Assembly: GCA_016930235.1 (NCBI GenBank)
Contig: JAFGHI010000038.1
Coordinates: forward strand, 34,211-98,210
Length of the DNA stretch: 64,000 nucleotides
Reading direction: 5' to 3'
From: Candidatus Omnitrophota bacterium
GTDB lineage: Bacteria > Omnitrophota > Omnitrophia > Omnitrophales > Aquincolibacteriaceae
The position numbers and the translations under genes are program-made. The stretch's first letter is position 1. Each line of letters starts with the position of its first letter. Positions 1 through 37,976 of the stretch are shown here, piece after piece. The notes under the pieces are model-generated. The model saw only the letters and a program-made list of their open reading frames with translations, had not been told where the DNA came from and did no database searches.

Positions 1-3000
1 AATCGTATTCCTGTTTCATTTGATTTAAGACATGCTCCGTCCAGAAAGAAACACCGCCCATCATGATGCTGGTCCTGAAATCCCTCTCGAGCCTGTCGAC
101 AACCTGGACAGCGGATTCCAGCTGCGCACGCAACTGATTCGCTTCGGTGCGGATTTCATCTAAGGTCGCATCCTCTCGGATGAGCCCTTCTCCAACAGCC
201 TTCGCCCGATTCGTCTGCCTTACCGCCTGATCCTTTGCAGTATCCAAAACCGAATCCAAAAGGCCCAGATCCTCACGCCAATCAAGGACATCCAGCATGG
301 ATTGACCGAGCATCGCAAAACCTTCTCTCTCGGCAATTTCTTCGAGAGGAATGTCATAACGACCGTTGGAATCCTTAGCCAGAAAATCACCATAGTAATT
401 TTGGATGGTTCCAGGTTCGGAAGGATTTCTCCGGCCTTCTGCAAGGACAAGATGAATAAGTTCAAGATACCCTTTATAGTCATCATAATCGAAATATTGC
501 TCGCGGCTCCTGCGGACCGAATCGTGAGCAGCAACGATATACTGCATCTCCGGTTCATCGATATGTCCGCGTTCCAAGCCCAAGGCTTCCCGGACCTGAT
601 TGACCGATTCGGTTAATTCATAAACGGCTTCTTCTCGATCCCGCGTCGATACTCCGGAATAATTCACCACCCCAACAAAAGACTGCGTCCGTACATCAAA
701 AACCATCTTTTCGACATCATTAACATTCTGAAGGAAGAAATCTTTATTGAGCCGCGGCTTGAGTTCGCCTTCAACATCCACGGAACCCGTTAACAGCCCC
801 TGAGCTAAATGGGGAATTTTCTGAAGCGCAAGCGTCGTCCAAACATACCAGTAACCGTAATAAGTCCCTTCATCCAATCGGATACCAAGGATTTGGTTTA
901 ATCGGGCAAGCTCAGCGATACTTTCAGCATCTGTCTTGCCTTCCAGTTCACTCGCAGCTTGCGCCGCTTCGAGTTGGATGGTTTCCAGCTGCTTTTGCAC
1001 AACACCTTTCGCTTCGTCGTAAACCCTCGGATATTGGATGCCTAAAACATCTCGTACTTCCGGTAAAATCTGGTCGGTTTTCTGCTCAGTGACCTGACCT
1101 TCAAAAGGAGACCCTTCCTCAAGCAAACTCATCAGTTCGCGTTCCGCGGTATCGGCCCCTTCCATTCCCGCGGAAACATCCTTCGCCATTTCATAGAGAA
1201 GTCTTCCAGGCTCCCACAAATAAGAATGGAAAAGGTTACTCTCAAATAATTTCAAGCCTAGGCTGTCTAATGGCGCCAGACTTTGGAAAGTATTTCGTCC
1301 TTCACCATATTGAAGGACATCGGTTAGATTGGCAAACGCTGTTGTCGGCGCACCGACAACAACTTTTTCTCTAATATCACTTTCACGGGCCTTTATCTCC
1401 GCAAGACGGCTTTGGCTTTCCTGCGGGAGTTCTTCGAGTGTCCGTAATGCAGGCTCGCCGATCCCCTCCGCCGTTAGCTTTCTGGAAGCCACTCGTTTCA
1501 TTTCTTTCATGAAGGGAGTTTCCTCAGCCTGACGATCACGATAAAGAGAAGGACGTAACTGTTCCGGTATTTCCACCCCCAAGGTCTCCAAACGCCTCAT
1601 GAACCGTGCATAAGCCACCAGATAATCAACCATTGCCGCACGGTAGCGGACATCAAGATCGAAGGTAGAATTGATGATGTTCTGAATATCGAAAGCGGAA
1701 ATTTTCTGGGCAAGTAATTTTTCCTGTAAGTTGTTGACCTCAGCTTCAAGATTTTCACTCACGGATCGCTGCTGGAGCGTCGTCATTCTCTGGCGGGCAT
1801 GTTTTAAATCAGCCAGCAAGGTTTCAAGTTCTGCTTGCACCTGCATCCTAACTTGCGCACCTTGAGCGTTCAGCTGTTCTTCTGTAATCCTTAAGATTCC
1901 CCTCCGTTGGTCGATCCCGTGTCCAAAAATCTGCCAAATCAGCGAAATTCCGAAGCGAACATCACCCGTAACAGGATGCGGAGCCTCGATATTCAGGTCA
2001 ATATTCGGCACCCATTTTTGATAAACAAGGGCCTCATCGGCAATCTTGATCCGGGCCAGCCGTTCCTGAATAAGCCGGGCCATTGTGTCACGGTCCCACT
2101 CGCCTTTGCCTTCCTGAACTAATCTTTCGAGCAGGTCATCTCCCAATTCAATGCTGTGGAATTCCCGAGGAACAAAAGCATTCACGTCCACGGGAAGTCC
2201 AGCCTGGCTGAGTAAATCATGTAAACCTTCCAGGGCGTTCTCCAAATCGCGCGCCGAGCGAATAAGCTCATTTTCTGCCCGGCGGAGATTCATTCGCCCA
2301 AAATAAACGCCGTCATATCCCCACTGCTGAAGCGAAGAGGCCAATTCTACCGTATCCAAAAGACTCTGAGCTTGTTGATCGCGTGTGCTCAGCAACTCAT
2401 AAACTGCCTTGGCAATTCCGTAACGGGCATAAGCAGTCAAGACCTGTTCACGATGCCCCTTAACCACAGCTTCCTGTTCAATCCCGATTTCCTGCTCCAC
2501 TTGAATCGCTTGACGTTCTGCAGTCTTAAAGAAACTGGCATTTAAAAGCGGGATCGAGAGTTTCAGCGAGGGACGGACATGTTCTCCCCTTTCCGTCAAA
2601 GCAAGCTGAGGAAGTCCGCCGCTTCTGCGCGCAAAAACTTCTGCTTCCGTGTAAGTCGAAAAAGGCAATTCCAATCCACGCTGATACCCTTCAATATTGC
2701 TGACACTTGCATGTACAATTCTTGCATGCTCATTACGTAAACGCCCTTTGACGAGCGCATAAAATCCATCGAGATCCCCCCGGGCCCTGGCGGCGTTGAC
2801 ACTGTCACGAGGCTGAAAATCACGTTCAACCCGCTGTTCAAGATCCAAACTTGATTCCATTCCTAATTTGGCCATCCGGGCCTTTAAGAATGCCAACCGG
2901 TAACCGCTAGCCGCCATATCATCCAGTGTTTGAAGGACAGCATTCTTGGCCCGCGTAACGTCTGCCGTCCTAACGGATCCAAGGACAAAAAGATCCTCGA

Positions 3001-6000
3001 GACGATCCACTTCATCTTGCTGAACTCCCAGAAACTCTTCGGCCAATCGATACTGTGCATAGGTCGTCTCATAGAGATTCTGAATAAGACGCTGCTGTTG
3101 ATGTTGCACGGCCCGCTGACGATCAAGTTGAAGGAAAAACTGATCAACCTCATTTTCAAGGAGCCGGATTTGATTTCTCCTGTCTTGGAGATACCGGTTG
3201 GCCCCGCTGAGTTCATTAATAAGAGGGATAAATTTAAGAATTTCCGCCTTGATATTTTCCGGAATATCAAAACCAAAAAGAAATCCCAGACCGCTTACAC
3301 CATGCATCGAACTATTCATCCAATTATCAAAGCCAAACTTGATTTTCCACGGCTCTCCGGCCTTCACTTCGGAGATCCTTGCCTGAAGCATTTGGGCTTG
3401 CAAAAGAAGCAGGTCGCTTTGCGCGAAAGGATAGACATCACCGCTTAAGATATGATTGAGTTCTTCAAAGACTTCGCGTATTTTTCTTTGTTTGGCATTA
3501 AATTTCTCACCGTCCGCTCGGGCGTATTCCTGGCGGAGGACGTCTAACGTCATCAAGAGCCTCAGAATAAAGTCGGGAGTTTTGACACCCGCTTCAAGAC
3601 TCATCACACCATCTTCTTCGGTTAACTTTCGAACATCGTCCAGCAAATCATCAACGCGAGCATCAGCATCTTCCTGAATACGATTATTGATTGCCCCAAT
3701 CTTATTACGGATCATCATCTCAAGGATTCGATCGCGAACTTGGTCGGCTTCACGATGGGAAGGATTTTTAGTAAGGACAAGGCGGGCGGTCGATAAGGCA
3801 TCTTCATATTCACCTTCCCCTTCCAGGGAACGCGCACGCTCCATCAAGGCCCCCTGCAGGGCATCACTTTGAGGATACTGCTTCAGCCCACGGCTTAAAA
3901 TTCCGACTGCGGCCTTATCTGTAGATGCTCTGGAGGCCTGATCCATAACAGCTTGTATCTCCTGTCCCGAAGCCCGTAAAGTCTCGACTTGCTCAACCGT
4001 TTTTTGGACATTCGCTATTTCTTCCTGTTCTCGCCTCTTCGCAATGAGGGAATCAACCGTAGTATCGTATCTTTTAACAGCCTTTTTGGCCGCTTCCACT
4101 TTTGCATGGTTACTAAAAGCATCGGGAATATGATCCAGCAACCTCTCGATTTGAAGCACAATCTCCCTCATTTCGGAGGGGTCGGCTTTTTTTTCTTCCA
4201 TATAAGAAAAATTTTCTTGCAGCGCCTGGATCCTGAGGATATCCGCGCGTCCACGGGCATCATCATTCACATATCGAACCTCGTTGATCACTGACAGGAC
4301 ATTCTGGAAATCTTGATCTTTCGTTAACCCGCGGGTAATCATCAATTCTGCCAGCCGCCAATGAGCTTCATTGGATATTTGGATAAAATCCCAATTCATC
4401 TCCAAATAAGGCTTGAGCCCCCCTAAAATATTACGATTGAATTTTTCAAAATCCCGCATCCGCCAATCGGAATCACTTTCCTTAAGCCGGATCACGTCAA
4501 GCGCTTGCTCAAGCCCATCCCGGGGAGTCAATCCCAGCTCGGAATAAATCTTTTCAAACATCACGTTTTCCACAACGGTCAGATTCTGTCGGGCCTTTTC
4601 CTGGGCTTCCCCCTCCGAGGCAACAAGAAGCTGTTGATAGCCACGGTAAAGCGCGCCTAAATCCTCGGCCGTCATCGATCGAAGACCCCGCCTCTGCATT
4701 TTCTCCAGGCGGTCTTCCAAAACGATGCGCTGCGCCTCGAGCGTTTCCGCCAACCCCACCTCTTCATTTTCCGATGAGACAACCATCTTGCGAAGCATCC
4801 GATAGGACTCGAGCCATCCTTCTTCCGAGCGGTTAAGCTGCAAGACCAGATCTTTGAGACCGGCCAATTCATAAAGTTGTCCCAATTGCTTTTCATCCAT
4901 GGATTCCTGAAGCTCCAAAAGATCAGATATGCTTTGCGCTTGCACTTGAAGAACCGGTTGGAGATTCTTCTCTAACTGCTGAATCCGGCTCACCGCGATT
5001 TGACGGGTATTTGCAATCACACTTTGAGCCACATTAAGATTTTCCTCGGCCGACTCGGTACGCAAATAGTCACTTCTTTTTTCGTAATCCCATTGAAAAA
5101 GGAAGTCCATGACATCCCTAAAATCAACTTTATCGCGAATTGTCACAAGGACGCGGGCCCATTCGTTCTGCATCCGCGCAAGTTCCGCTCCGACCTGCAC
5201 CTTTCCATAAGGACTATCGGCCAGCTGAAAAAGACCTCTTAATTCAACCACAGCCGACTCGTAATCCGCTGTGGACAGATAACTTCTCTCGTGGATATCC
5301 TGCAGACGTTTCTGAACGAACGCCCGGTTCATCGGCGAGAATTGCTCCGCAAGATCCGCATCAAGGCTTCTTGTGATCGAGGCTTTGGCGCGCAGGAGAT
5401 TCTCCGTTGTTCGATTCGCCTCGACTTGCAGGTAGTCAAGCCAAATATTGCCGCTTTGTTTGAATAGATCCAAGGACGCTTGAACCTCAATCGCATCATC
5501 GAGAAGCCGCAGGGCTTCAGAATAATACCCTTGCTCGGCTTGGCGGAGTCCATCGGATCGGAACCGCTTCGCTAATTCGAGCCGGGCCGTTCTTTCTTCC
5601 CGGGAATGCTGCGTCCATTGATCGAGGAATTCCTGAGCTACTTCACGGGCCTCTTCAGTCCCAATCTCAAAAAGACCTGTCACAACGAGTTTTGCCTGAT
5701 TCAAATGTTCGCGCGCCAGGTTTAATCCTTCGGGCGTTGTAAGGTTAGCGTTATAAGCAATGCCGACATGCTGCACAAATTGATGCTGGCGGATATAAAC
5801 ATTGTCGGGATACTTCTGGGCCAATAAAGCGAATTCCTGGATCTGACGGCCCTCATCCTTGATTTTCTTGATCCTCTCAACCTCCCGGTTGATTTCATAA
5901 ATTTCAGCCGACGGCTGCTCGACAATAGCATCGCGATAGACTTTTCTCATTTGATACAGACCTTGAAGAAGATGATCTTTCTCTTCGATTGTAATGCGGC

Positions 6001-9000: not shown

Positions 9001-12000
9001 AAGGATCAAACGTAGCCGTTTCCGGATCAATCCCAAGAAATTCGATGGTCCTGGGATCCTGCATCATGGCCGCAAATCCGTGGGCCGCATCCATCAAATT
9101 ATAGGTAAAACTGAGATTCCCGATCGCTTTGGTCACCAACACATCCCCATCAGCCGTCGTTTGGAGATCTCCCGTCACCATGTAGCCAAGAAGAGAACCA
9201 AACCCACCGGGAAATTCATTCAAAATCGCTTGAATCCCAACATTCGAACTTTGAAACTTTCCATTCTCGAACGTAACCCCAAGCGCATCGCGAAAATCGC
9301 CCACAAGGATTCCGACGAGGTCTGAAAGCCTTTCGGAAGCATTCACCACGGTATTCGAGGAAAACCGGATCTCACCCGTCATTTCATCAAAGGTCGAAGC
9401 TCCCGGCAACATCATATTGACGATGCTTAAAATTGAACCGTCGGAAATGATCTGATTGACCTCTTCGAGTCCCGAAACCCACTGAAGATCCTGGTCGTTG
9501 TAAGAAATTTGAAGGATATGACGAAAAGCCGGGGATTCCACAAGATCAATGAGCGATTGAACCCTCTCGGCAAGATTAATCTCATTTCCTCCGGGATAAA
9601 TAAGTCGATTTGTCTCTTTCTCATAAATTCCATTACCCGCTAAAAGGTAGCCTTCCAGAAAACCCAGGAATCCGCCTTGAAATTGGTATCCCGATGGCAA
9701 TTGCAACGTACCAATGCCAAAATCGCCGAAAATCCTTCTTAATGTCTGACTGGTGATTTCCAATTGCCCGGTCGACGGATCAAGCACAAGGCCGATGGAG
9801 GATCGAATCTGAGGGTCCTCAAAAATATCCGCTACAAGATCAGCCATATTCTGGAGCTGTTCGGTCGCATTGACAACATCTCCCCCGGAAGGCCGGAGAA
9901 TAATTTCACCGCTTGTGACATTAATCTCCAACTCGCCTTTTGAGATGTGATCGAGATAACGAATGAGCCCAGCGCTATTTCCGAAGATGGCATCCAGCGC
10001 ACGCCCATTGGGCTGAGTCGTATCAAAACCAAGATCCTGCTCGATATTGAATTGGGCCCGGAAAGCATCAAATCCGGAATTGAGTAACGTGCTGAAAACT
10101 TGGGTTTGAGCACTGGGATTAAATCGAAAGAAAACATCCCCGGTCACATCATCAAAATAAAAATCCCCGCGGCCCGAAGCGAAATAGTTCAACCACATGG
10201 AATAGACAACCGCGGGATTGCCGAGACGATAATCAGCTTTCAACTCATCCCAGAGGCGGTCCAGTTTTTCCATGTCAGCGATAAACTTCAGAACAATATC
10301 TTTGTAGACAGTTTCAAGATCGGGACGTGATGGGTTTGCGACATCCAGCATGATGGCATTTTCAATGCTATCGATAACTTCCTGCAACTCCACTTCGCCA
10401 CGATTGCCCTCGGCGTTATACCGATAAGCATGATGAACAGCGGTCCCATTTTCTCCGACTTCACTCGTCAAAACATATTCATTCGTTTGCCCTGACTCCT
10501 CGATATCAAAGGCACTTGGCCCCTGGACCTCAATTGATGCGGGATGGGTATGAATCGAGAGCGAGGCTTTTTCAAGCAATTGGCGAACGGGGCCATACGT
10601 TTCGATTTCAACCGCCGATTCATTACCGCTCGAGAAGACAAGTACTTCACCATAAAGGACTGCTATCCCGATTTCATTGGGAAGCTGTTGTAACCGTTCA
10701 AGCTCTTGAGCGGTTGGCGCTTCGGATAAAACCACCGCAAGAGGTCGGTCCAGGGCAAGCAGAATTTCTGCATCCTCAAAATTGTATCTTTCCGCTGCTA
10801 AGCCGATTTGCTTTATCATCTCCTCGGAACGATAAATTCCGAGAGACGCTTCGAGGTTTGCTTGTATTTCGTCGTATCCTTCCCCGGCATCGATCGCCTT
10901 GGCATAATCGTTTAATAAACCCCGTATTTCGTCAGAAACCGTGGGAAGACGATCGATTCTAATTTCGTACTCGGTATAGCGTCTTTGATGATCAAAAATA
11001 TCCCGCGCTTTCCGGAGTTCTTCAAGCCGCCCCGGCGTTCCGTCATAGGACTCGACCGCTTTGCGGTAGGTTTCAAAACGCTTAACCAGCTCCGTTCGGC
11101 GGGACAACAGACCTCCTTCTTTCAGCAAATCTTCAATCTTCAAAAAGGCGGCCCGCGCTTCTTCGTAATATGTAATATCGTTCTCAAACGCGACGATAAG
11201 CCCTTCCACAAGATTCAACGGGGCGGACAACTGTTTCTCATCCATGCCTCCGACAATTTGAACCTGCTCACCGATTTGACCGAGAAGCCTCTCAAGATGC
11301 CCTTGATTGATCTCAAACCCGACTTCTTTTGCCCTAAGATAAAGGACAAGAGACGGCGCCAATTGTGCGTACGCGTGGCCGGCCAAAACAACCTGATTCA
11401 CCAAACGATTAAGCCCAGTTTCATCCCCTTCACGAACTGCCTGTTGGAACCGAGTCTGAACATCCTCCATCCAAGGAACTTCCAGGCCCAACGTTTCGAA
11501 ATTCCGGTTAGCCTCTTCGATAACATTCACTAAGGCAATGGCATTTTGTATGGACGATTGGACAGCATCCGGAGAAACACCTTCGGGCCCTTCGATGCCC
11601 CCAGTATCAATGGGAGGTCCCGTCACAATTTGAATATCATTTAGAAAATCCGCAAGATATTTGCCGTGAAAAGCCGGCGGGACATCCTCCTGAACGGCCC
11701 GGCGGATTCCTACCCATTCGCCGCGCGGCGTTCGTCCCATAAACATATCCGATATCGCCCAATTAATCTGAAGTGTTAACTGGAAACGCCGCTGCAAAAC
11801 TTCTTCATATCGCAACTTGGCCTTTCCTACTTCACCTTCATAAATAATATCTTCGATCACTCTCGCCTGGCTGGTCCCCAGGGATTCCATGAATTCCTGA
11901 ACGAACGTATCATCAGGTCCTCGGGGCCGGACCATCCCTGCCCCCAAAGCGACCATACCGCCGCCTTGAATCACGCTGCGAATTTCAAAAGGCGCCTCGG

Positions 12001-15000
12001 ATTCCATCGGCTTTAGAGGCGCTATTAAAGCCGGTTGAAGAACCTCTGAACCCATGGACTGAACTTCGCGCCCTAAGGCTTCGTACCGATCCCGGTACTT
12101 TTCAATCGCACCCGGATTGTAACGCTGAATAATCTGAAGCAAACGATATTCGATTAAATCTTGATGCTCTTCGGAAATCTCCTGATGAGGGGGCAAACCC
12201 ATATTCGCCATCAATCGGCGCGTAAAAATAATCAGATTCAACTCCCGAATCGCCTTCTGTTCTTCCACCCTCTCCTCTTCATTTTTTCCAAGCGTCTGAT
12301 ACCTTTCTATCCGCTCACGCGTCACTTCATCCTGAGGCTCTGCACCGGAAGGAAAAACAATATTCCAAAGGTCATCGGCGTAGTCAGCTGCCCGTTGAGG
12401 ATCTTCGGTCAGCAGGAATTCAAACCCTTGGCTTGCCGACACAGCATAGTCCTCCAATTTCACAACGTGGGGACCTTCCTTAGGACGCCCTTCGGCAAAG
12501 TCTCTGGCGATACGCTGCCGTTCTATCTCAGCAGCATCTGGAATTAATGGCAGAGGCTTCCGGGGCATATCAGGCGTTGAAACAGGTTCTTCAGGCACCT
12601 GGGGCTCTTGGGGGGGTTGATCAACATCCGTCTGAGGACCACGAAATAGGGAATCAAGATATTCACGGAAAGTCGGCAATTGCGGTCCAGTAGGTTCGAC
12701 AGGCTCAATCTCAGGGGTTTCAGGAACAGAAGGTTCAGTAACTTTCTTCTGTAAACCGTCTATGGCATACGCCATCCCTTGAAACACCCGGCGCGCCTCT
12801 TCTCCCCGCAACGTTAGTTCAGGTCTTTGTATTTGTGCCTCGACCTGGTTAAGAGCATCCCGCAAACCGGCAACGTCGTACCCCTGGGCATCTTTCTTAT
12901 CAATTCTATATTCCGTATCAGCAACCATCAGAAGGAGCTGAAGCCGTTCATGCTCCTGATCTCGGAAGGATTGAACATCAACTTTTCCCTCCCCAATATC
13001 CGTCAGGAGACGAGCAACATCCGTCCCGTCCCAACCCTCCCACTTAGGACTTTGTTGATGCTCTGCTAGAACCCTTTGGGCATGCTGAAAATCTTGAACA
13101 TCTCTTGAACTCCAGCCCGATAATGCAAGATCCCCCGCCTGAGTATGGAGTCCAGCGACTCCCATGACACGAGCTGTCATACGCATCACGGTTCCGGACA
13201 CATCAAGTCCTGTTAGCTCCTCCGCCTTTCCTAAGAGCCAATGCCCCCAGTTCATCGCCCTGCGTTCGGCAAAGACAACAGGATGCGAAAAAAAGGTTAT
13301 ATCAACGGGTTTTTCTCTAATAAGTGAAACTGCTTTTGAAAGCCCCTTATCTATAAGTTGGGATAGCCCCATTTGTCCCGGAGCTTCTCCTCCGGCAAGC
13401 AGCGCAATTTCAGCACCAACGATCAACATCCCGCAAACACTGCTGATATAAGCCCGATAAAAAGCGAAACTGCGGAGAGATCTGAGAATACCCATAAGAG
13501 GAGCAACGATTTTTTGCTGAAACAAAGAAGGCGCTTGGATACTCGGCGGTGCCCGTGCCGGGGTTTGCTCAAGAGGCTGACTCCGCAACTTCTGCAATTC
13601 CTGTTGGAGCAGGGATTCTAAATACTCTCGCTGAGGATCCGCGGTATAACGGATATGCGGCAGAAGTGCCTCGATCTCTTGAATAAATTCGATCTTCTCA
13701 CCAGCTTCTAACGACTCGGAAGCCACAACGCCTTCAACAATTTCACGAAGGCTGACATAATCCAACGATTGGATATTTGATTTTAGCTTCGAGAGCTGAG
13801 ACACAATTGTTTGGTCAAGACGCATCTTCGTAAATCGGGCTGAAAAATTTGGGATAGTTAACATGAAAGACAACAAAGCCGTATTGCTGAAGGATGACAG
13901 CGTAAAGGCATTCACAAAAGCCGCGACTGTGATACCCAAAACCGGAACTTTCTCTGTCAATCCAAGTAAGAAAGGGGCATAACCTCCAAGCAAATTGACT
14001 CCCGCAAGACCCGCCGGCATCAAAATCGTGATGAGTCCCATTCCAATGGCGCTAAAAAGTGCCATTTTCCAGCGTTTCTGAATAAACTGAATCGTAGGAA
14101 TAAGAAAGGGTTGCAAAAGTAATTTATCCAATATCCGGTAGCTATAACCAAGCACATGCTGACCATATTGGACTTGATTTAAAACCGAAACGACAGGTTG
14201 ATGTCGCAAAAATATGTGATAAACCCCTCGCTCAACCAGTGTCCCTTGCTGCCAATCCAGAAAAGAACGCCCAAAATTAGGCTTTGTCGCAGCGATCATG
14301 GCCCCCGCCAAGGTCTCAGCAGCCAATCCACGCGGAAGTTCATCGACTTCCAAAAACCCAAAATCCCTTCCGAACAAACTCCCTTTTAGATAACGCAACC
14401 AGTGAAATTTCAACTTTCGGCGATAAAAGCTATAGAAGAATTGATCCAAAAGTTTCGGCCCAGCTAAGAGGACCCAACGCATCGGACGCCAAAAAGGACT
14501 GATAATCTTGTCAGCCCAAATACCGTACTTCTTTTCCGGCTTCCTCTGCAAATCCTGCTGAACATAATAAGCCTCACGGGCCTTTATCAGCTGATGAAGC
14601 ACATACCGCCACTGCTCGATTGAGGCATCCAAGGAAAGACCCGTCACCTGACTTAACGTCACCAAATCCGACTGATTAAATCCAAACTCCTTTTGAATCC
14701 GCTTGAAGATCTTCTTGGCGGGAACATCCACAGAAAACGATGAAACAATAGGTAAACCTGTTACTTGACTTCTTAGACGTCTGGCCAAAATCTTCCGAAT
14801 CGCACCCTGCAAAGTCATGGGGTACTGAGCCACATCTTCTTCGGACAATGGACTTTCTCTCATAGTAGGAATCTCAAAACCCTCTATGGAAAGAATCTCC
14901 TCTGGTTGAAGCTCGCTAGAAACTTCTTCAGGTTGAGGCTCGCTAGAAATTTCTTCGGGTTGCTCACGACGAACGCTAACAACTTCTAGATCCGAAAGCA

Positions 15001-17857
15001 CCAAATCGATATCTTCCCGAATCATACGAAGTGGATCTACTAAATTACTCAGTATCTTGTTCGATAAAACCGGCACTTCTTCAACTTGTCTGGCTGACAA
15101 TTTCTGACCCTGTTGAAGCATGTTGAGCTTTTGCTCGATTTCACTTAAGATCTCACCCATACGCCGCCTAATATCTCTCAAGGCGTCACCCCGAACCTCC
15201 AAACCCAGTTCTTTCGCTTCTTTAACCTCAAGCGAAATATTGATAACAAGTTCGTCTATTAACTCTGAATCCAAAAGATATTGAAAACGCCGAAACCATG
15301 ATGGTGCATCCATCCCGAAATGTTTAAGGGCAAATAAAATAGAACGCGAATCATAGAGGCGATTACCCTCCAACGTTAAACCCGTGGCCTCCCACCCAAG
15401 ATTGTTTGAAATTTTTCCCCAATGCTCTCTCATCCAATAATCGCCAAGCACCAGATCAAGGAATGCAAGTTTCTCTTCAATCGTCAAGGCATCCGGATCT
15501 TCCGTATTCTCCAAAAGCGTCATTTCCGAGATAATAAGCTTTAATTTTTTCGCTATCTTAGCCGCCGTCCCTTCAACCTGAAGCGGAGTGAAAGGTTGCC
15601 CACGTTCTGAATCTCCAGGCTTAGAATTTGGTTGCTTACGTAATTCTGAGCGGCTCACGAGCAGATTGGCATCATCGATGCTCACATGAGACAAGAACAT
15701 TTTTCCGCCGTTGATCGTGATCTCCCCCAAATCCTTGCCATACCCTAATAACTGCCGCACTTCCGAGCGGCGGGTTTCTTCCGGTGCCTCAATTGCAGCA
15801 AATCGGCTTCCGGCATTGGGACCGAAGGATGTCACAAACAATTGGCGACCATCCACAGCGGTATGACGAGCACCTTCGGCAAGAAATCTAATAAAGTTTC
15901 CGACTGGCTGCACAAAATCACGATTCGTTTCTTGGAGTCCCCAAGTTGTGCTCAAATGAGATCGGATATCCGATACCGTCTCCGCCATATTTCCATGTCG
16001 AAAAACGCTTTGAATGAATGTAAGGAGGTTAAAAAAGAAAATTTTCGACGCCACGGGGTCCTGAAGTGTCATCCTCAAAGCGGCATTCTCCTGGGTCTTC
16101 GAAAATTCGCTTAGTAATTTCATGGCTTGGCTTTCATCCACCATCATCCTCCAGGCTGTCAATTGATACCTTGGATCATTTAATTCCGTGTTGGGAGGCG
16201 GAAAATAGGACTCCACAAGGACATCTTCAATCGGCATCGGCTTTTGGCTTAAAGCATCGGCATAAAGTGTAGACTCGCGGGCTTCATCTACAGCCCCGGC
16301 AATCCTGGGAGTAATGACAATGTAGGAAATATCCTGCTCCCTCAAATACCGCTCAATTCCCGGGGTATGAAATCCGCCGGCCACCACCGCCGAAATTTTA
16401 TTATTCTCCGCTTCCATTTTTGCCACCGCTTTTTCGATCAGGATCCTATCGCGTGACAAAGCTGCGGAATAGAATCGCTCGACACGCGGCAGGTCCTGAT
16501 CGAGTTTCTCCAACTGGGACGGCAGTCCGTAGGAGAATTGGTATTTCTCTAAAAGCGGTGTTAAAAATCCACGAAATTTCTCGGCTTTAAATTCATCCTT
16601 GTAGCTGAAATAGAAATCGGCATCCTGCTTGGTCATCGTAAAATCAAACATCTTCTCATAGACGTCATAAATCCTCATCAAACGATCCAACCCGCTCTCG
16701 TCTTCTGTCTTTGTGAGTTTATCCTTGATGCCACGCTCCAGAGACTCAATCTCATCAAATATCTCGACTCCGATCGATTCATACAACTGGATATAGCGCA
16801 GGTATTGCAAAACGTTCTCAAATCGTTCTTCCTTAGGACCGTTTTTTTCTTGACCGAATCGCTGAGATACCCCCTTGATTTCGCTCTCCAGGTAACCGTA
16901 ATAGTCTCCTCGTTTCATCTTCTTCATCCGGAATTGGACTGTATTGTTGATAAATTGGGATAATCGATCGCGCGAAATAATGCTCTTTAAATCATCCACA
17001 AGATTTTCAATCTCGTTTTCTGCCTTGGAGAAATCTATCTTATTTTCCAATTCAACAAGTTCTAACAGAGCATGAGTTGAGGGGTAATCGTAGAGAGAAA
17101 GATGTTGGCCTTTTGCGAGATTGACTAAATATCGGACATAACTCGTAAGTTCACGGCCTCCTTGATTAAAAACAATTTTGCGTCGCCTGAGCTCTCGAAG
17201 ATCATCCGAAAATACAAAACGGGACAACTTGTCAAGAATTTGATGCAATTGAGATAGAATTTCTTCGTCAGCTTCCTTAAATTCAAGAGCGGCCAAATAA
17301 GCATCTCGGTTCTGGTCATAGAGATCCTTATCCTCGACACCATAAAGCTTTATTTCAGGTCGTTTCGTTATGGCCAAATATTCAGGACCCGTTAACCGTC
17401 CTTCTCTTAAAAAATAATCGGCGACATTTTTCTTTGCCACGACATCGGGATAAAAGTTGAATATTCCTGTAAATAAATCACCCGTTGCGCCCTCTAAGCT
17501 TATTGTTTTTAATTCATGATGCTCGCTAAAATACTCCAGGATATCCGCTAAATTCCGCTGCGCCTCTTCATTGACATGAGCATCCTGAAGATGAATGACA
17601 AGACGGTCACGAGTTCCCTTGAAGCTTGATTTGATCTTCCCCATGGATTCCGGCAGTTGGATAGCGTCCAGTTTAAGCCGTGAAGAATTTGAAAGGATAC
17701 TTTCTAAGTTGTAAGGCGACTTATTTTTTTGAAGGACTGAATTGAGGATATTGACATCACCCGCCCAGATAGTCGAGGTATACGTAAAAACCAGGGCAGT
17801 TAACAAGGCTACAGTGCGAAGCCACAACCTCGCGCTCGGTTTCTGCCATTCTAACAT
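1..17857 (-). CDS. Giant ORF, 5' end at the ATG at 17857 and 3' end beyond the window start, so at least 5,952 codons are in the window. The predicted protein has a signal/TM-like N-terminus (MLEWQKPSARLWLRTVALLTALVFTYTSTIWA) and internal hydrophobic islands; the rest is charged and helical with no family I recognise.
   Basis: No ORF longer than 182 aa appears in any of the six frames of the supplied track across 17.8 kb. I translated the minus strand by hand from the ATG at 17857 and found no stop down to position 1. An in-frame TAA lies just upstream at 17882-17884. The frame arithmetic is 17857-2+1=17856 nt, i.e. 5952 codons, and local frame checks at about 10030 and about 5005 agree with the same frame. 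The translation reads as protein throughout. Confidence 0.8.
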   Translation of the reverse strand, partial: MLEWQKPSARLWLRTVALLTALVFTYTSTIWAGDVNILNSVLQKNKSPYNLESILSNSSRLKLDAIQLPESMGKIKSSFKGTRDRLVIHLQDAHVNEEAQRNLADILEYFSEHHELKTISLEGATGDLFTGIFNFYPDVVAKKNVADYFLREGRLTGPEYLAITKRPEIKLYGVEDKDLYDQNRDAYLAALEFKEADEEILSQLHQILDKLSRFVFSDDLRELRRRKIVFNQGGRELTSYVRYLVNLAKGQHLSLYDYPSTHALLELVELENKIDFSKAENEIENLVDDLKSIISRDRLSQFINNTVQFRMKKMKRGDYYGYLESEIKGVSQRFGQEKNGPKEERFENVLQYLRYIQLYESIGVEIFDEIESLERGIKDKLTKTEDESGLDRLMRIYDVYEKMFDFTMTKQDADFYFSYKDEFKAEKFRGFLTPLLEKYQFSYGLPSQLEKLDQDLPRVERFYSAALSRDRILIEKAVAKMEAENNKISAVVAGGFHTPGIERYLREQDISYIVITPRIAGAVDEARESTLYADALSQKPMPIEDVLVESYFPPPNTELNDPRYQLTAWRMMVDESQAMKLLSEFSKTQENAALRMTLQDPVASKIFFFNLLTFIQSVFRHGNMAETVSDIRSHLSTTWGLQETNRDFVQPVGNFIRFLAEGARHTAVDGRQLFVTSFGPNAGSRFAAIEAPEETRRSEVRQLLGYGKDLGEITINGGKMFLSHVSIDDANLLVSRSELRKQPNSKPGDSERGQPFTPLQVEGTAAKIAKKLKLIISEMTLLENTEDPDALTIEEKLAFLDLVLGDYWMREHWGKISNNLGWEATGLTLEGNRLYDSRSILFALKHFGMDAPSWFRRFQYLLDSELIDELVINISLEVKEAKELGLEVRGDALRDIRRRMGEILSEIEQKLNMLQQGQKLSARQVEEVPVLSNKILSNLVDPLRMIREDIDLVLSDLEVVSVRREQPEEISSEPQPEEVSSELQPEEILSIEGFEIPTMRESPLSEEDVAQYPMTLQGAIRKILARRLRSQVTGLPIVSSFSVDVPAKKIFKRIQKEFGFNQSDLVTLSQVTGLSLDASIEQWRYVLHQLIKAREAYYVQQDLQRKPEKKYGIWADKIISPFWRPMRWVLLAGPKLLDQFFYSFYRRKLKFHWLRYLKGSLFGRDFGFLEVDELPRGLAAETLAGAMIAATKPNFGRSFLDWQQGTLVERGVYHIFLRHQPVVSVLNQVQYGQHVLGYSYRILDKLLLQPFLIPTIQFIQKRWKMALFSAIGMGLITILMPAGLAGVNLLGGYAPFLLGLTEKVPVLGITVAAFVNAFTLSSFSNTALLSFMLTIPNFSARFTKMRLDQTIVSQLSKLKSNIQSLDYVSLREIVEGVVASESLEAGEKIEFIQEIEALLPHIRYTADPQREYLESLLQQELQKLRSQPLEQTPARAPPSIQAPSLFQQKIVAPLMGILRSLRSFAFYRAYISSVCGMLIVGAEIALLAGGEAPGQMGLSQLIDKGLSKAVSLIREKPVDITFFSHPVVFAERRAMNWGHWLLGKAEELTGLDVSGTVMRMTARVMGVAGLHTQAGDLALSGWSSRDVQDFQHAQRVLAEHQQSPKWEGWDGTDVARLLTDIGEGKVDVQSFRDQEHERLQLLLMVADTEYRIDKKDAQGYDVAGLRDALNQVEAQIQRPELTLRGEEARRVFQGMAYAIDGLQKKVTEPSVPETPEIEPVEPTGPQLPTFREYLDSLFRGPQTDVDQPPQEPQVPEEPVSTPDMPRKPLPLIPDAAEIERQRIARDFAEGRPKEGPHVVKLEDYAVSASQGFEFLLTEDPQRAADYADDLWNIVFPSGAEPQDEVTRERIERYQTLGKNEEERVEEQKAIRELNLIIFTRRLMANMGLPPHQEISEEHQDLIEYRLLQIIQRYNPGAIEKYRDRYEALGREVQSMGSEVLQPALIAPLKPMESEAPFEIRSVIQGGGMVALGAGMVRPRGPDDTFVQEFMESLGTSQARVIEDIIYEGEVGKAKLRYEEVLQRRFQLTLQINWAISDMFMGRTPRGEWVGIRRAVQEDVPPAFHGKYLADFLNDIQIVTGPPIDTGGIEGPEGVSPDAVQSSIQNAIALVNVIEEANRNFETLGLEVPWMEDVQTRFQQAVREGDETGLNRLVNQVVLAGHAYAQLAPSLVLYLRAKEVGFEINQGHLERLLGQIGEQVQIVGGMDEKQLSAPLNLVEGLIVAFENDITYYEEARAAFLKIEDLLKEGGLLSRRTELVKRFETYRKAVESYDGTPGRLEELRKARDIFDHQRRYTEYEIRIDRLPTVSDEIRGLLNDYAKAIDAGEGYDEIQANLEASLGIYRSEEMIKQIGLAAERYNFEDAEILLALDRPLAVVLSEAPTAQELERLQQLPNEIGIAVLYGEVLVFSSGNESAVEIETYGPVRQLLEKASLSIHTHPASIEVQGPSAFDIEESGQTNEYVLTSEVGENGTAVHHAYRYNAEGNRGEVELQEVIDSIENAIMLDVANPSRPDLETVYKDIVLKFIADMEKLDRLWDELKADYRLGNPAVVYSMWLNYFASGRGDFYFDDVTGDVFFRFNPSAQTQVFSTLLNSGFDAFRAQFNIEQDLGFDTTQPNGRALDAIFGNSAGLIRYLDHISKGELEINVTSGEIILRPSGGDVVNATEQLQNMADLVADIFEDPQIRSSIGLVLDPSTGQLEITSQTLRRIFGDFGIGTLQLPSGYQFQGGFLGFLEGYLLAGNGIYEKETNRLIYPGGNEINLAERVQSLIDLVESPAFRHILQISYNDQDLQWVSGLEEVNQIISDGSILSIVNMMLPGASTFDEMTGEIRFSSNTVVNASERLSDLVGILVGDFRDALGVTFENGKFQSSNVGIQAILNEFPGGFGSLLGYMVTGDLQTTADGDVLVTKAIGNLSFTYNLMDAAHGFAAMMQDPRTIEFLGIDPETATFDPSNPNASYFLNENVPSMITLVNRMGLREARVGRDIEERDGERFLVAETYNVMQTFENIGSLLSDPDVQDALGLKVDPITGGIQIDPASDSSIRQYFENADLRVVDFTIFLAERVRTNEQGEKVVPILNEKGYAIREISIGDYAEGISRLMEIPLLAEVIQEGLTEERIADLEQRRAERGPGVVVGGVEAEPISSREVIDNLVFLTSEQAFLTLAENELFNTILYKNEELQGLLLFYADSVVLRGNETYLKFPEREAVHAGTFFNLVDGLLNSRFRELVGASSETEFYDFLTSDEDFMRQANGLLTTLALDHAEIAKMLRDVGVSSSKANVIALVNQMVKIKDKVNDMRARANESGLNIFNSKEFAILQAIAAESMVDGVDVEDVLYEPILQIALVGRILIFDTNQSRTEKQLKIQQDIERLLGQVKRNVERDFIDGLREMQALKVRIQDLEAKREDLNSQLKQYQAAVTDEALDRLLAGRISRERANFFRQQLEILDDEIMVQEHRAQNLRRHLDMLYDGDLDKILDNGAATALEGLKTMWRAAGLDGKLMAEIKTIQRRLDRAEAGLDRSILGGLVEFQAVIDFFVDITRLTEMNTYGTIFRLEPVIRAKIGKRLYDENQIRIREWMTARIEMERAIQRFSDEAVKNDRMLTDAGGILKLQEAALEKAASRREEVLGDPVAQPQKRLDVINQYFRILDDYRRTETEIIQRELTQTAYKRAQDEGLLKVRTAGAGQEGSIEVTVDSLSAMAKANHVLKPLHERLATAQQRYRNEANFINAFLRGIELDASIGGVFNLTKSTESSLSHFFDEGILTWSLVLSIVVYDPARPARVERLRLGVEEASLRFEDADDLMNLNIAEHFVRIGEIQNVIRQVRRDVDVIGEQIRTARDSDERQSLGISLAEKEYQLERLIADRKGMEVDLKSFIGLNPDAKFARDETTGEIDVDAALAFDATTVLQAYSQYFEFNEAGEVTGLKVEGEEALNRVGALLEDLEIQIQKSRRITIEEKDHLLQGLYQMRKVYRDAIVEQPSAEIYEINREVERIKKIKDEGRQIQEFALLAQKYPDNVYIRQHQFVQHVGIAYNANLTTPEGLNLAREHLNQAKLVVTGLFEIGTEEAREVAQEFLDQWTQHSREERTARLELAKRFRSDGLRQAEQGYYSEALRLLDDAIEVQASLDLFKQSGNIWLDYLQVEANRTTENLLRAKASITRSLDADLAEQFSPMNRAFVQKRLQDIHERSYLSTADYESAVVELRGLFQLADSPYGKVQVGAELARMQNEWARVLVTIRDKVDFRDVMDFLFQWDYEKRSDYLRTESAEENLNVAQSVIANTRQIAVSRIQQLEKNLQPVLQVQAQSISDLLELQESMDEKQLGQLYELAGLKDLVLQLNRSEEGWLESYRMLRKMVVSSENEEVGLAETLEAQRIVLEDRLEKMQRRGLRSMTAEDLGALYRGYQQLLVASEGEAQEKARQNLTVVENVMFEKIYSELGLTPRDGLEQALDVIRLKESDSDWRMRDFEKFNRNILGGLKPYLEMNWDFIQISNEAHWRLAELMITRGLTKDQDFQNVLSVINEVRYVNDDARGRADILRIQALQENFSYMEEKKADPSEMREIVLQIERLLDHIPDAFSNHAKVEAAKKAVKRYDTTVDSLIAKRREQEEIANVQKTVEQVETLRASGQEIQAVMDQASRASTDKAAVGILSRGLKQYPQSDALQGALMERARSLEGEGEYEDALSTARLVLTKNPSHREADQVRDRILEMMIRNKIGAINNRIQEDADARVDDLLDDVRKLTEEDGVMSLEAGVKTPDFILRLLMTLDVLRQEYARADGEKFNAKQRKIREVFEELNHILSGDVYPFAQSDLLLLQAQMLQARISEVKAGEPWKIKFGFDNWMNSSMHGVSGLGFLFGFDIPENIKAEILKFIPLINELSGANRYLQDRRNQIRLLENEVDQFFLQLDRQRAVQHQQQRLIQNLYETTYAQYRLAEEFLGVQQDEVDRLEDLFVLGSVRTADVTRAKNAVLQTLDDMAASGYRLAFLKARMAKLGMESSLDLEQRVERDFQPRDSVNAARARGDLDGFYALVKGRLRNEHARIVHASVSNIEGYQRGLELPFSTYTEAEVFARRSGGLPQLALTERGEHVRPSLKLSIPLLNASFFKTAERQAIQVEQEIGIEQEAVVKGHREQVLTAYARYGIAKAVYELLSTRDQQAQSLLDTVELASSLQQWGYDGVYFGRMNLRRAENELIRSARDLENALEGLHDLLSQAGLPVDVNAFVPREFHSIELGDDLLERLVQEGKGEWDRDTMARLIQERLARIKIADEALVYQKWVPNIDLNIEAPHPVTGDVRFGISLIWQIFGHGIDQRRGILRITEEQLNAQGAQVRMQVQAELETLLADLKHARQRMTTLQQRSVSENLEAEVNNLQEKLLAQKISAFDIQNIINSTFDLDVRYRAAMVDYLVAYARFMRRLETLGVEIPEQLRPSLYRDRQAEETPFMKEMKRVASRKLTAEGIGEPALRTLEELPQESQSRLAEIKARESDIREKVVVGAPTTAFANLTDVLQYGEGRNTFQSLAPLDSLGLKLFESNLFHSYLWEPGRLLYEMAKDVSAGMEGADTAERELMSLLEEGSPFEGQVTEQKTDQILPEVRDVLGIQYPRVYDEAKGVVQKQLETIQLEAAQAASELEGKTDAESIAELARLNQILGIRLDEGTYYGYWYVWTTLALQKIPHLAQGLLTGSVDVEGELKPRLNKDFFLQNVNDVEKMVFDVRTQSFVGVVNYSGVSTRDREEAVYELTESVNQVREALGLERGHIDEPEMQYIVAAHDSVRRSREQYFDYDDYKGYLELIHLVLAEGRRNPSEPGTIQNYYGDFLAKDSNGRYDIPLEEIAEREGFAMLGQSMLDVLDWREDLGLLDSVLDTAKDQAVRQTNRAKAVGEGLIREDATLDEIRTEANQLRAQLESAVQVVDRLERDFRTSIMMGGVSFWTEHVLNQMKQEYD
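14903..14965 (-). repeat. In-frame tandem repeat of roughly 27 nt (about 2.3 copies) inside the giant ORF. It encodes an acidic Pro/Glu/Ser-rich peptide repeat (..EEISSEPQPEEVSSELQPEEILS..).
   Basis: I see directly that ggttgaagctcgctagaaacttcttca is followed by ggttgaggctcgctagaaatttcttcg and then ggttgctcacg... Confidence 0.6.
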
Positions 17858-18272: not shown

Positions 18273-18346
18273 TGGAGCGGGATACGGGAATCGAACCCGT
18301 CTAACCGGCTTGGGAAGCCGGGACATTACCACTATGCTAATCCCGC
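18273..18346 (-). tRNA. tRNA-Gly (anticodon CCC), with the CCA end encoded.
   Basis: The reverse complement reads GCGGGATTAGCATAGTGGTAATGTCCCGGCTTCCCAAGCCGGTTAGACGGGTTCGATTCCCGTATCCCGCTCCA. The anticodon stem is CCGGC/GCCGG around a TTCCCAA loop, and a T-arm GGTTCGATTCC is present. Confidence 0.85.
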
Positions 18347-37967: not shown

Positions 37968-37976
37968 ATGAGCATT

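Follow-up and report, generated by a model that had tools for sequence, protein, structure and literature searches.

Giant ORFs are common in the Omnitrophota and have already been published for this phylum (PMC10066038; bioRxiv 10.1101/2023.11.21.568195; 10.64898/2026.06.07.730766). According to work that cites it, Kizina 2022 also described Omnitrophota giant ORFs, among which are the 'Archaeovorins'. In published studies these proteins are membrane-anchored and poorly conserved, and a role in adhesion or predation has been proposed for them. The size classes in use are an ORF of >20 kb (Seymour 2023, PMC10066038), a product of ≥10,000 aa (Nielsen & Lui 2026, bioRxiv 10.64898/2026.06.07.730766) and a product of >30,000 aa (West-Roberts 2023, bioRxiv 10.1101/2023.11.21.568195). 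Giant genes make up a notable share of the small Omnitrophota genomes and are thought to underlie a host-dependent or predatory lifestyle. So far, next to nothing in them has been conserved or assignable, so that they have offered no obvious experimental entry point.

We analysed a window of 64,000 nucleotides, the whole stretch of DNA considered here, for which a preliminary description had reported a giant uninterrupted minus-strand frame running from an ATG at 17857 to the window edge. Retranslation from this ATG to position 2 (2..17857, minus strand) gave 5,952 codons with zero stops, the 3' end lying past window position 1. In the other two frames of the minus strand the same region holds 269 and 405 stops, and the open frame is therefore far past chance expectation. 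As had been noted, it was missed by the ORF track, because the lister omits frames open at the edge of the source; the longest ORF listed in 1-17857 has 182 aa. The codon statistics are of the coding type throughout, with GC1>GC3>GC2 in each 1,000-codon block, an RSCU that correlates with that of the neighbouring genes (r=0.84), and a GC content and GC skew like those of the remainder of the window. The neighbouring proteins are identical to the MAG proteins MBN1688481-MBN1688497 of NCBI 'Candidatus Omnitrophica bacterium', encoded by a contig of 109,455 bp, and nearly all relatives of the giant protein were found in Omnitrophota MAGs; the lineage is a candidate phylum known for giant genes, as the preliminary description had suggested. 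The frame is a real gene, carried on the chromosome of an uncultured member of the Omnitrophota.

The visible product has a mass of 675.7 kDa, where at least about 650 kDa had been estimated, with a pI of 4.9 and a net charge of -260; most of it looks helical, in agreement with the charged, helical sequence described before. The giant protein has at least 5,952 aa, exceeds 676 kDa and is predicted to be membrane-anchored. Its full-length close relatives count 7,100-7,900 aa, i.e. 21-24 kb, and the complete gene probably passes the 20-kb line and not the larger size thresholds. A longer product is possible, since we obtained no self-match from the protein database, in which the longest match had 7,941 aa.

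We then considered the region upstream of the gene. The preceding in-frame stop was correctly placed, a TAA at 17882-17884, 9 codons upstream of the ATG. Translation starts at the ATG at 17857, since the homologs can be aligned with the protein from its first residue on and a conserved promoter and a conserved motif precede this codon. The promoter-like site (17955..17983, minus strand) has the form TTGACG-17 nt-TATACT, its -10 box being preceded by a TG, and reaches 10/12 in a consensus scan; its blocks TTGAC and TGTATACTT are kept in the alignment with loci L014, L025 and L064, and partly in L021. The AAGGGACGGCAAAC motif just upstream of the ATG (17862..17875, minus strand), a probable ribosome-binding region as read from the sequence, is kept in four of the five syntenic loci. 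The start is separated from a tRNA-Gly(ccc) gene by an AT-rich leader or intergenic region of 415 bp (17858..18272, minus strand; 35% GC vs 47% for the window), in which no Rfam family was matched. This tRNA gene (18273..18346, minus strand; ARAGORN and Rfam) lies on the same strand as the giant gene, 416 bp upstream, an arrangement that had also been described correctly and that recurs in 4/4 syntenic loci (L014, L021, L025 and L064). A tie between the tRNA and codon use was rejected, GGG representing 26% of the Gly codons in the giant gene vs 30% in its neighbours.

Further upstream, the order flippase-aroQ-accBC-amaP-pfk-gmhA-rfaE2-thiD2-thiE-pfkB-tRNA-Gly-giant is common to the same four loci, with aroQ not detected in L021, and L025 and L064 being short contigs that carry the proximal genes only. 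This shared order supports vertical inheritance of the giant gene, which appears to have its own promoter. The upstream genes are housekeeping genes, and no secretion or pilus gene was found in the 46 kb upstream within the window. For two full-length relatives outside the orthologous group (P0004 and P0012), conserved synteny was not found. Omnitrophota genomes carry several paralogous giant genes.

The protein begins with a hydrophobic segment at aa 11-35 (17753..17827, minus strand), identified by hydropathy as a signal anchor or signal peptide and accompanied by K6, R10 and R14, as the preliminary description had proposed for this N-terminus. Residues 11-44 were modelled as a helix, and the hydrophobic peak is present in 234 of the 276 relatives. 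A second TM helix after the head (aa 601-620) was also considered and rejected, as family conservation is absent; the threshold was reached in 16/276 relatives only.

The anchor is followed by a conserved module of about 500 aa, hereafter the head (aa ~60-570; 16148..17680, minus strand), with a TIKI/TraB/ChaN/Ere-like alpha/beta core. In the model this core is a parallel beta-sheet with flanking helices, as in the TIKI fold, and is split by a helical insertion of ~300 aa (aa 177-483). The preliminary description had recognised no catalytic motif; the head nevertheless carries a putative catalytic set, D92-x-H94, E122, R469 and H497. Of the 287 sequences compared, 277 have D92, 286 have H94 and all have E122, R469 and H497, and the head is under strict purifying selection. 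The residue spacings equal those for RRSP and Bcr135 (PMC6254334), the correspondence of residues being drawn from their order and spacing. On these grounds the head looks like a highly diverged member of the TIKI/TraB/ChaN/erythromycin-esterase superfamily. Direct searches gave no such link: Pfam and NCBIfam returned nothing for aa 1-1000 at E≤0.1, the head-family profile found no TIKI member among PDB sequences, and a Foldseek search of the head against the PDB was not significant, the best hit being EreC with E=0.2. From its residues and the anchor before it, we infer that the head may be an active hydrolase, peptidase or esterase, placed at the outer face of the inner membrane.

Behind the head lies a linker with the sole DNA tandem repeat of the giant gene, a 27-nt unit in 2.2 copies (14904..14962, minus strand; TRF) that encodes the acidic repeat PEE(I/V)SSE(P/L)Q at aa ~966-985. 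It is followed by a membrane module (aa ~1000-1740; 12638..14860, minus strand), delimited by BLAST/phmmer, hydropathy and charge, which alone in the protein has a net positive charge. Mid-protein hydrophobic islands had been noticed previously, and this module contains hydrophobic segments, seen by hydropathy only, at aa 1262-1336 and 1466-1494. These may form three to five hydrophobic helices, the number in aa 1262-1336 being uncertain, and Lys/Arg clusters lie on both flanks of the latter cluster. The module matches no Pfam family, and its conservation is limited to the closest subfamily, about ten relatives, with BLAST/phmmer matches in P0001-P0005, P0017, P0110, L016 and L021. Relatives P0004, P0012 and P0013 carry a C-terminal TM cluster.

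The rest of the visible protein is a tail of more than 4,200 aa (aa ~1740-5952), acidic, mostly helical and without cysteine. Indeed, the 5,952 aa include a single Cys, which sits in a membrane helix of the membrane module, vs 1.45% in the neighbours (P=2e-36), and the close relatives are equally Cys-poor. Neither 5.8 billion proteins nor 310 relatives gave a match beyond aa ~1740. A search with aa 1-4999 returned matches to the head and the membrane module only, and tiles of 400 aa compared with 99 and then 310 relatives gave nothing past aa ~1740. Likewise, we found no homolog of aa 4801-5952 at E≤1e-3 nor of aa 4860-5460 at E≤10, nothing for aa 570-5569 among PDB sequences, and no relative of the last 500 visible residues in genome and metagenome collections. 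Even the positional ortholog L014, whose flanking genes are 52-82% identical to those of the window, aligns over aa 3-568 only. At the level of sequence comparison, the tail has diverged past recognition even among positional orthologs. Such divergence beside well-conserved flanking genes is the pattern expected of a surface molecule under diversifying selection.

Few features could be assigned in the tail. Following the suggestion to scan the protein in tiles, Pfam and NCBIfam searches of six tiles matched OEP and one TPR only. The latter is a single TPR-like unit at aa ~4670-4704 (3746..3850, minus strand; Pfam TPR_14, E=8e-6, 26.5 bits vs a cutoff of 23.5). Cryptic internal repeats had also been suspected: strong ones were not found by self-BLAST, but a comparison of tile against tile with phmmer revealed weak units of ~85-130 aa at aa ~2560-3040 (8738..10180, minus strand; E 1e-4 to 1e-3), a region richer in Gly/Asn/Ser/Thr. 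A regular expression picked up a JAMM/MPN-like motif, HTHPASIEVQGPSAFD, at aa 2436-2451 (10505..10552, minus strand), which is an unsupported lead: it occurs once in the giant protein, while the relatives, 947,000 residues in all, gave 6 loose matches, and a Pfam scan of the surrounding tile gave no JAB family. RTX, LPXTG, HExxH and Walker A motifs were not found in the visible 5,952 aa, nor was GGxGxD or any RTX Pfam match.

The tail further contains, as an addition to the preliminary description, a TolC-like segment at aa ~4893-5421 (1595..3181, minus strand) matching Pfam OEP (PF02321, E=3e-12, 47 bits vs a cutoff of 22). The match comes from the second OEP repeat, aa 5277-5421 (45-47 bits; model positions 30-184 of 187). 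A weaker OEP match lies ~380 aa upstream of the strong one and fits the two-repeat layout of TolC; in a split scan this candidate first repeat (aa ~4893-4998) is sub-threshold, with 11 bits and E=0.27. The strength of the OEP match holds after HMMER composition correction (45-47 bits, E~1e-12). No NCBIfam TolC model matches the giant protein, no OEP match is on record in the relatives, and an AF2 single-sequence model of the segment shows long helices with a pLDDT of 43.8, which is not reliable.

Taken together, these features lead us to favour, with some reserve, an envelope-spanning giant surface protein made of an anchored hydrolase-like head, a membrane module and a fast-evolving interaction tail with a TolC-like segment. 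The N-terminal signal anchor would hold the conserved head, acting as a hydrolase, at the outer face of the inner membrane, and would be followed by the membrane module common to close relatives only. The tail would lie outside the cytoplasm, because Cys is near-absent, the protein is acidic and the OEP match is above the Pfam cutoff; it would run across the periplasm to the outer membrane or the cell surface. There it could mediate fast-evolving interactions with other cells, the role proposed in the published Omnitrophota work, and the head might serve to mature or trim the tail or a partner, or to set it free. Topology, enzymatic activity and a role at the surface or in host interaction are predictions of this model. 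Several observations speak against this model. The head has no significant Foldseek match, the membrane topology is ambiguous, one of the two OEP repeats only is above threshold, relatives have no OEP match on record, and the genes upstream in the window include none for secretion or pili. Moreover, distant family members contain cytoplasm-type enzyme domains (PGM, PPDK, kinases, radical SAM), so that tails are possibly intracellular in parts of the family.

Some of these observations feed the best of the alternatives, an intracellular scaffold tethered to the membrane, which we regard as unlikely. With Lys/Arg clusters on both sides of aa 1262-1336 and an uncertain helix count, the tail could be returned to the cytoplasm; distant members' tails carry ATP- or SAM-dependent enzyme domains; the NCBIfam TolC models are unmatched and OEP repeat 1 is sub-threshold. 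In addition, Nielsen & Lui found 46% of giants to be TM-only, with their bulk predicted cytoplasmic (10.64898/2026.06.07.730766). A scaffold in the cytoplasm is, however, difficult to reconcile with the near-total absence of Cys and the strong acidity, both unlike the cytoplasmic neighbours, or with the OEP match, and K6, R10 and R14 around the N-terminal anchor orient it with the head on the non-cytoplasmic side.

A self-processing polyprotein, or toxin-like delivery, in which the TIKI-type head would be a cis-acting protease that cuts the precursor or frees the variable tail, appears to us rather improbable. The arrangement itself is suggestive: the head never occupies any position but the N-terminus, and its catalytic residues stay the same whatever the cargo, which is reminiscent of the conserved head and hypervariable tail of polymorphic toxins. 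True endopeptidases exist in the TIKI superfamily (Tiki, RRSP), such a head would resemble the MARTX processing domains and the C39/S8 peptidases proposed for larger Omnitrophota giants, and West-Roberts et al. proposed that N-terminal peptidase domains cleave giants (10.1101/2023.11.21.568195). Yet the superfamily also holds esterases and a haem-binding protein, no cleavage site or processed product is known, and no toxin or immunity gene was seen in the window. Head-bearing proteins range from ~500 to at least ~7,900 aa in the collections searched. Standalone head-only proteins of 470-630 aa exist, so that a tail is not required as substrate of the head.

It is very improbable that the open frame arose by misassembly, is a chimera joining paralogous giant genes, or belongs to a decaying pseudogene that has stayed open. 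In favour of such an artefact, the contig comes from a MAG, only the upstream genes and not the giant gene are confirmed by independent Logan assemblies of SRR13394437, and Omnitrophota genomes hold several paralogs, but the stop-free codons, the uniform and host-like codon statistics, the synteny, promoter and start conserved across five genomes, the purifying selection on the head and the full-length relatives lying within long contigs all stand against it.

The envelope-spanning reading can be carried further, to a proposal that we consider doubtful but worth stating. The head would be a previously unrecognised and very large branch of the TIKI superfamily (>8,000 clusters at 50% identity). 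Large and giant proteins across Omnitrophota and neighbouring phyla would all use it as their membrane-anchored 'launcher', an active peptidase or esterase that processes, tethers or releases a hypervariable, often enormous tail at the cell envelope; here the tail would have captured a TolC-like module, one polypeptide then reaching from the inner to the outer membrane. If so, it would be the first conserved, experimentally tractable handle on how Omnitrophota giant proteins are deployed. A large subset of these giants has one strictly conserved, enzyme-like N-terminal module that is small enough to express and assay, and this family comprises thousands of large proteins whose fold and catalytic residues can be predicted. 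Should the TolC-like insert prove real, a giant protein anchored in the inner membrane would contain an outer-membrane-factor module, an unusual combination.

Comparison with known systems places these elements as follows. Like polymorphic toxins, MARTX and giant RTX adhesins, the protein is very large, acidic and Cys-poor, with one conserved terminal module and a fast-diversifying remainder. Unlike them, it has no RTX GGxGxD, TPS domain, LPXTG, CPD or known toxin domain in its visible part and no T1SS gene nearby, and its conserved module is an enzyme-like head and not a secretion signal. With TolC and the outer membrane factors it shares a nearly complete match to the OEP repeat model; however, TolC is a protein of ~450-500 aa with its own signal peptide whereas the segment here lies ~4,900 aa deep in a giant, and MFP, ABC or RND partner genes are absent from the window.

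The head was compared with the TIKI superfamily taken as Tiki, TraB/PrgY/GumN, EreA/B/C, Bcr135/136, ChaN, HopBA1 and the RRSP of MARTX toxins. Besides the alpha/beta core, the likeness consists of the acid-x-His, a Glu ~28 residues later, a second His and the Arg needed in RRSP. In contrast to these proteins, an Asp replaces the first Glu of the 2His/2Glu motif, the core is interrupted by the long helical insertion, very large proteins carry the module at their extreme N-terminus and nowhere else, and similarity is undetectable by sequence profile and not significant by Foldseek.

The Omnitrophota giants and Archaeovorins are the closest systems. Like them, the protein comes from this phylum, starts with a signal or anchor, has TM helices at intervals and very few domains that can be recognised, and is very poorly conserved in sequence. 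PGM/PMM, HEAT, PPDK, radical SAM, kinase and methyltransferase domains, all typical of Archaeovorins, occur in distant relatives that share the head. SecA-DEAD, glycosyltransferase, HEAT, dockerin and C39/S8 domains are absent from the visible 5,952 aa, and in the Pfam and NCBIfam scans that part gave no member of the Archaeovorin domain set (glycosyltransferases, methyltransferases, GH, peptidases, NUDIX, HEAT, SecA-DEAD). The protein is also smaller than the ≥10,000 and >30,000 aa classes, judging by its relatives, and has housekeeping genes upstream, not T2SS or pilus genes. The preliminary description had called it probably the most unusual object in the window, which is too strong, since the gene is of a kind already described in Omnitrophota. 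What is new is the assignment of the head and the divergence of the tail: in the published papers N-terminal regions are generally without identifiable domains, whereas in the present protein only the N-terminal module is both conserved and assignable.

Minus-strand retranslation from the ATG at 17857 down to position 2, where the frame runs off the window edge, gave 5,952 codons with no in-frame stop between 2 and 17857, which bears out the uninterrupted frame of more than 17.8 kb claimed in a preliminary description. The preceding in-frame stop that it placed at 17882-17884 is indeed a TAA, nine codons 5' of the ATG. Over the same stretch, the remaining two minus-strand frames contain 269 and 405 stops. 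The six-frame ORF list, said to have missed this giant gene, leaves out ORFs running off the source and for this reason shows nothing longer than 182 aa here. Each 1,000-codon block of the gene has the GC1>GC3>GC2 coding pattern, its synonymous codon usage correlates with that of 12 neighbouring genes (r=0.84), and its GC content and GC skew are like those of the rest of the window. The visible product (5,952 aa) has a pI of 4.9 and a mass of 675.7 kDa, in agreement with the earlier estimate of at least about 650 kDa.

The giant gene is preceded by a leader of 415 bp with 35% GC and by a tRNA-Gly(ccc) gene on the same strand, 416 bp upstream (18273-18346), so the tRNA-Gly and AT-rich leader described before are both present. 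Alignment of the leaders of positional orthologs brings out two conserved elements, a near-consensus promoter at 17955-17983, TTGAC(G)-17 nt-TG-n-TATACT, also recovered by consensus scan, and the motif AAGGGACGGCAAAC (17862-17875) directly 5' of the ATG. Since homologs of the giant protein align starting at residue 1, these three observations together fix the start codon. We argue from these sequence signals that the gene would be transcribed from a predicted promoter of its own.

The 46 kb upstream are occupied by housekeeping genes, almost all of them in the orientation of the giant gene (among them pfkB-type kinase, thiE, rfaE domain II, gmhA, pfk, accBC, aroQ, pheST, thrS, radical SAM enzymes and two-component regulators). 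Four neighbouring proteins (ThrRS, PheT, AccC and PFK) are identical to NCBI entries in the series MBN1688481-MBN1688497, annotated as Candidatus Omnitrophica/Omnitrophota MAG proteins, and Logan assemblies of run SRR13394437 contain fragments identical to sequence of this neighbourhood. The heptose/LPS genes rfaE domain II and gmhA imply a diderm envelope; no secretion, pilus or efflux genes were found in these 46 kb. Four loci from relatives (L014, L021, L025 and L064) have in common the order flippase-aroQ-accB-accC-amaP-pfk-gmhA-rfaE2-thiD2-thiE-pfkB-tRNA-Gly(ccc)-giant gene, with aroQ not detected in L021 and only proximal genes covered by the short contigs L025 and L064. Their flanking proteins are 44-82% identical to the window counterparts, and the giant gene is thus a vertically inherited positional ortholog and no recent insertion.

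In a second group of close relatives, of the 7,700-7,900-aa type (L006, L007, L010, L013, L017, L019, L028), a tRNA-Ala(cgc) gene precedes the giant gene in the same orientation, at a distance of 290-1,170 bp, and tRNA-Leu(gag) lies upstream of two genes limited to the N-terminal module (L060 and L081). Codon demand was rejected as the reason for this recurrent tRNA adjacency. Thiamine phosphate synthase is encoded by two overlapping ORFs, a ThiD2-like N-terminal part (20039-20461) and a ThiE catalytic part (19414-20073), which jointly cover NCBIfam model PRK02615 and keep this split order in the syntenic loci. The sole plus-strand cluster (37509-38964) consists of two HSP20 genes in tandem (37509-37967, 38113-38820) and, after them, tRNA-Val(gac) (38888-38964). 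With all other annotated genes on the minus strand and a negative GC skew throughout, the window is likely to fall inside a single replichore. Two adjoining function-unassigned proteins with C-terminal PilZ (c-di-GMP-binding) domains are encoded at 27704-29362, near genes for an HD-GYP/response-regulator-type c-di-GMP phosphodiesterase (50677-52689) and a multi-PAS histidine kinase (60141-62879).

A search with aa 1-4999 retrieved 99 proteins of 2,777-7,941 aa; Omnitrophota MAGs are the source of most, and a few carry the labels Chlamydiota, Elusimicrobiota or Auribacterota. The query's own protein was absent and the longest match had 7,941 aa, which suggests that this database has an upper length bound of ~8,000 aa; if so, the full giant protein may exceed 8,000 aa, or its absence may have some other cause. 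The sole region common to all matches is aa ~1-570, always at the match's own N-terminus; aa ~1000-1700 are additionally common to about seven closest matches, and the membrane module there (aa ~1000-1740) is subfamily-specific. Exhaustive phmmer searching of 1.84 billion cluster representatives with aa 1-590 gave 8,106 proteins at E <=1e-3, 6,793 at E <=1e-10 and 2,523 at E <=1e-30, the match being N-terminal in all of the best 150 of the 8,106. At least 547 stretches of the genome collection encode relatives (547/600 among the pattern matches listed). Among 80 loci kept, those with a named phylum come almost without exception from Omnitrophota MAGs, and two copies are found on some contigs. 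In 46 of the 80, the frame behind the N-terminal module reaches the end of the locus without a stop, so that up to ~3,900 aa can be read; the proteins of other loci have 1,200-3,700 aa. Nine loci (L041, L048, L049, L056, L060, L069, L072, L079, L081), from Omnitrophota and PVC-group MAGs, encode proteins of ~470-630 aa with the conserved N-terminal module (aa ~60-570, the head) and no giant tail; barring frameshifts in these loci, the head would therefore be an autonomous unit. Complete close relatives have 7,100-7,900 aa and a second TM cluster near the C-terminus.

Alignments of the head show the conserved blocks HIQDAH..EAQ, EGAxG, GxEY, GVEDxxLYxxN, FYxxALxRD and LVTGGFHTxGI. An AlphaFold2 model from a 26-sequence alignment (pLDDT 83.3, pTM 0.72) has an N-terminal helix (aa 11-44), a short disordered linker and an alpha/beta core interrupted by a ~300-aa all-helical insertion (aa 177-483). 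Its structural matches were 2rad_A (Bcr135, rank 1, score 10.0), 8bqs_DQ (TraB family, rank 2, 9.8), 5t09_A (HopBA1, rank 3, 9.6), 2qgm_A (Bcr136, rank 4, 9.2), 2g5g_X (ChaN, rank 5, 8.9), 6xcq_A (EreC, rank 6, 8.9) and 5w6l_A (RRSP, rank 9, 7.9), all on the TIKI superfamily list of PMC6254334. With Foldseek the best match was likewise EreC, at a non-significant E=0.2, and the head family profile found none of the PDB sequences. RRSP has a 2His/2Glu catalytic signature (E3900-x-H3902, E3930, H4030) plus the essential R4001, and Bcr135 has the pair His85/Glu113 (PMC6254334). The candidate catalytic residues of the head are D92-x-H94, E122, R469 and H497; the H-to-E spacing of 28 residues (H94-E122) is the same in RRSP and Bcr135, and the R469-H497 spacing is 28 versus 29 in RRSP. 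Among 287 non-identical family members, with identities down to ~21%, E122, R469 and H497 are kept in 287, H94 and Q100 in 286 and D92 in 277. The earlier description recognised no catalytic motif in the protein, but this conserved set is a candidate one; aa 1-1000 match no Pfam or NCBIfam model. From the model, with residues matched by spacing, we assign the head to the TIKI superfamily as a very divergent domain whose putative active site is intact and which probably works as a hydrolase. Its substrate cannot be deduced from this membership, because known members range from peptidases (Tiki, RRSP) and esterases (Ere) to a haem-binding protein (ChaN).

The linker between head and membrane module contains an acidic PEE(I/V)SSE(P/L)Q repeat, encoded by a 27-nt tandem repeat (14904-14962; 2.2 copies, 90% matches). 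By hydropathy, hydrophobic segments occur at aa 11-35, 1262-1336 and 1466-1494, and an N-terminal peak is found in 234 of 276 relatives, in line with the signal peptide or TM anchor and the mid-protein hydrophobic islands first proposed. A moderately hydrophobic stretch behind the head (aa 601-620) was rejected as a family feature, not being conserved among the 276. K6, R10 and R14 lie before the anchor, a placement that favours N-in insertion and thus an extracytoplasmic head. The part at aa 1001-1500 is the only net-positive one of the protein, with Lys/Arg clusters on both sides of aa 1262-1336 and before the aa 1466-1494 helix, which holds the protein's only Cys (C1475). There is room for two to four helices in aa 1262-1336: three would put the tail (aa ~1740-5952) outside the cytoplasm, two or four inside. 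This ambiguity speaks for the main rival reading, a membrane-tethered cytoplasmic tail, as do enzyme domains of cytoplasmic type found in the tails of distantly related members of the family; we consider this reading rather unlikely.

Beyond aa ~1740 no homologs were found in 5.8 billion proteins, among 310 relatives searched tile by tile, or in the PDB. The L014 ortholog shows 55% identity over aa 3-568, and none of its other ~3,300 visible residues can be aligned with the giant protein; the L021 ortholog is alignable over aa 1-744 and 1038-1598 only. The family thus combines a conserved head with a tail hypervariable even among orthologs. A small gene (L004, 36254-36643) ~2.4 kb downstream of a 7,941-aa relative (P0012) has 23S_rRNA_IVP and weak bAvd-like Pfam matches; bAvd-type proteins go with diversity-generating retroelements, and this gene could be relevant to tail hypervariability. 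The tail has a net charge of -260 and is rich in Leu, Glu, Ala, Arg and Gln, much as first described, except for a Gly/Asn/Ser/Thr-richer part (aa ~2500-3000) with weak ~85-130-aa repeats. It lacks Cys, and the whole protein has 1 in 5,952 aa versus 1.45% in neighbouring proteins (binomial P=2e-36), a depletion equal in close relatives. Only two Pfam matches fall in the tail, a TPR unit (aa ~4670) and OEP of the TolC family (aa 5277-5421; model positions 31-184 of 187, 45-47 bits, cutoff 22, E~1e-12); a further weak OEP match (11 bits) lies at aa ~4893-4998, and a structure model of the OEP segment built without homologs is unreliable (pLDDT 44). RTX, LPXTG, HExxH and Walker A motifs are absent from the tail. 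The JAMM/MPN metalloprotease signature is HxHx(7-9)Sx2D; a JAMM-like HTHP..PS..D motif, HTHPASIEVQGPSAFD (10505-10552, aa 2436-2451), occurs once here and has no Pfam or profile support; 947,000 residues of relatives gave only 6 loose matches.

Cys depletion, acidity, the OEP module and the published envelope or surface view of giant proteins all argue for an extracytoplasmic tail. We slightly favour a composite arrangement in which the head would act as a hydrolase on the periplasmic side of the inner membrane, and the tail would stretch outward, in the direction of the outer membrane or cell surface, and mediate fast-evolving interactions with cells of a host or of prey. Maturation, trimming or release of the tail, or of a partner, may be the task of the head; the sharper form of this protease idea, a self-processing polyprotein or toxin-like system, appears improbable. 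An assembly artefact is very unlikely. As a tentative suggestion, the head may serve hypervariable giant envelope proteins as a widespread TIKI-type "launcher" enzyme. We have high confidence in the statements on gene, lineage and family alone: the gene is real, has a predicted promoter and is of Omnitrophota origin. The preliminary observation is confirmed and its interpretation supported.

Published work already treats giant ORFs as a hallmark of Omnitrophota, as anticipated for candidate phyla; most Omnitrophota classes have ORFs >20 kb, which are poorly conserved and contain few domains (PMC10066038). The present protein is among the smaller of these giants. Lengths above 30,000 aa are reached by "Archaeovorins" and dockerin-type giants (bioRxiv 10.1101/2023.11.21.568195), and the visible part of this protein differs from the former in lacking their domain set. 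A TM helix or signal peptide is present in 94% of 916 catalogued proteins >=10,000 aa (bioRxiv 10.64898/2026.06.07.730766), and N-terminal regions "generally lack identifiable domains" according to West-Roberts et al. (bioRxiv 10.1101/2023.11.21.568195). In the searchable literature we found neither a conserved N-terminal module with TIKI-type assignment, nor a demonstration of tail turnover between syntenic orthologs, nor a TolC-like segment in Omnitrophota giant proteins. These three predicted features would set the giant gene above a routine giant ORF.
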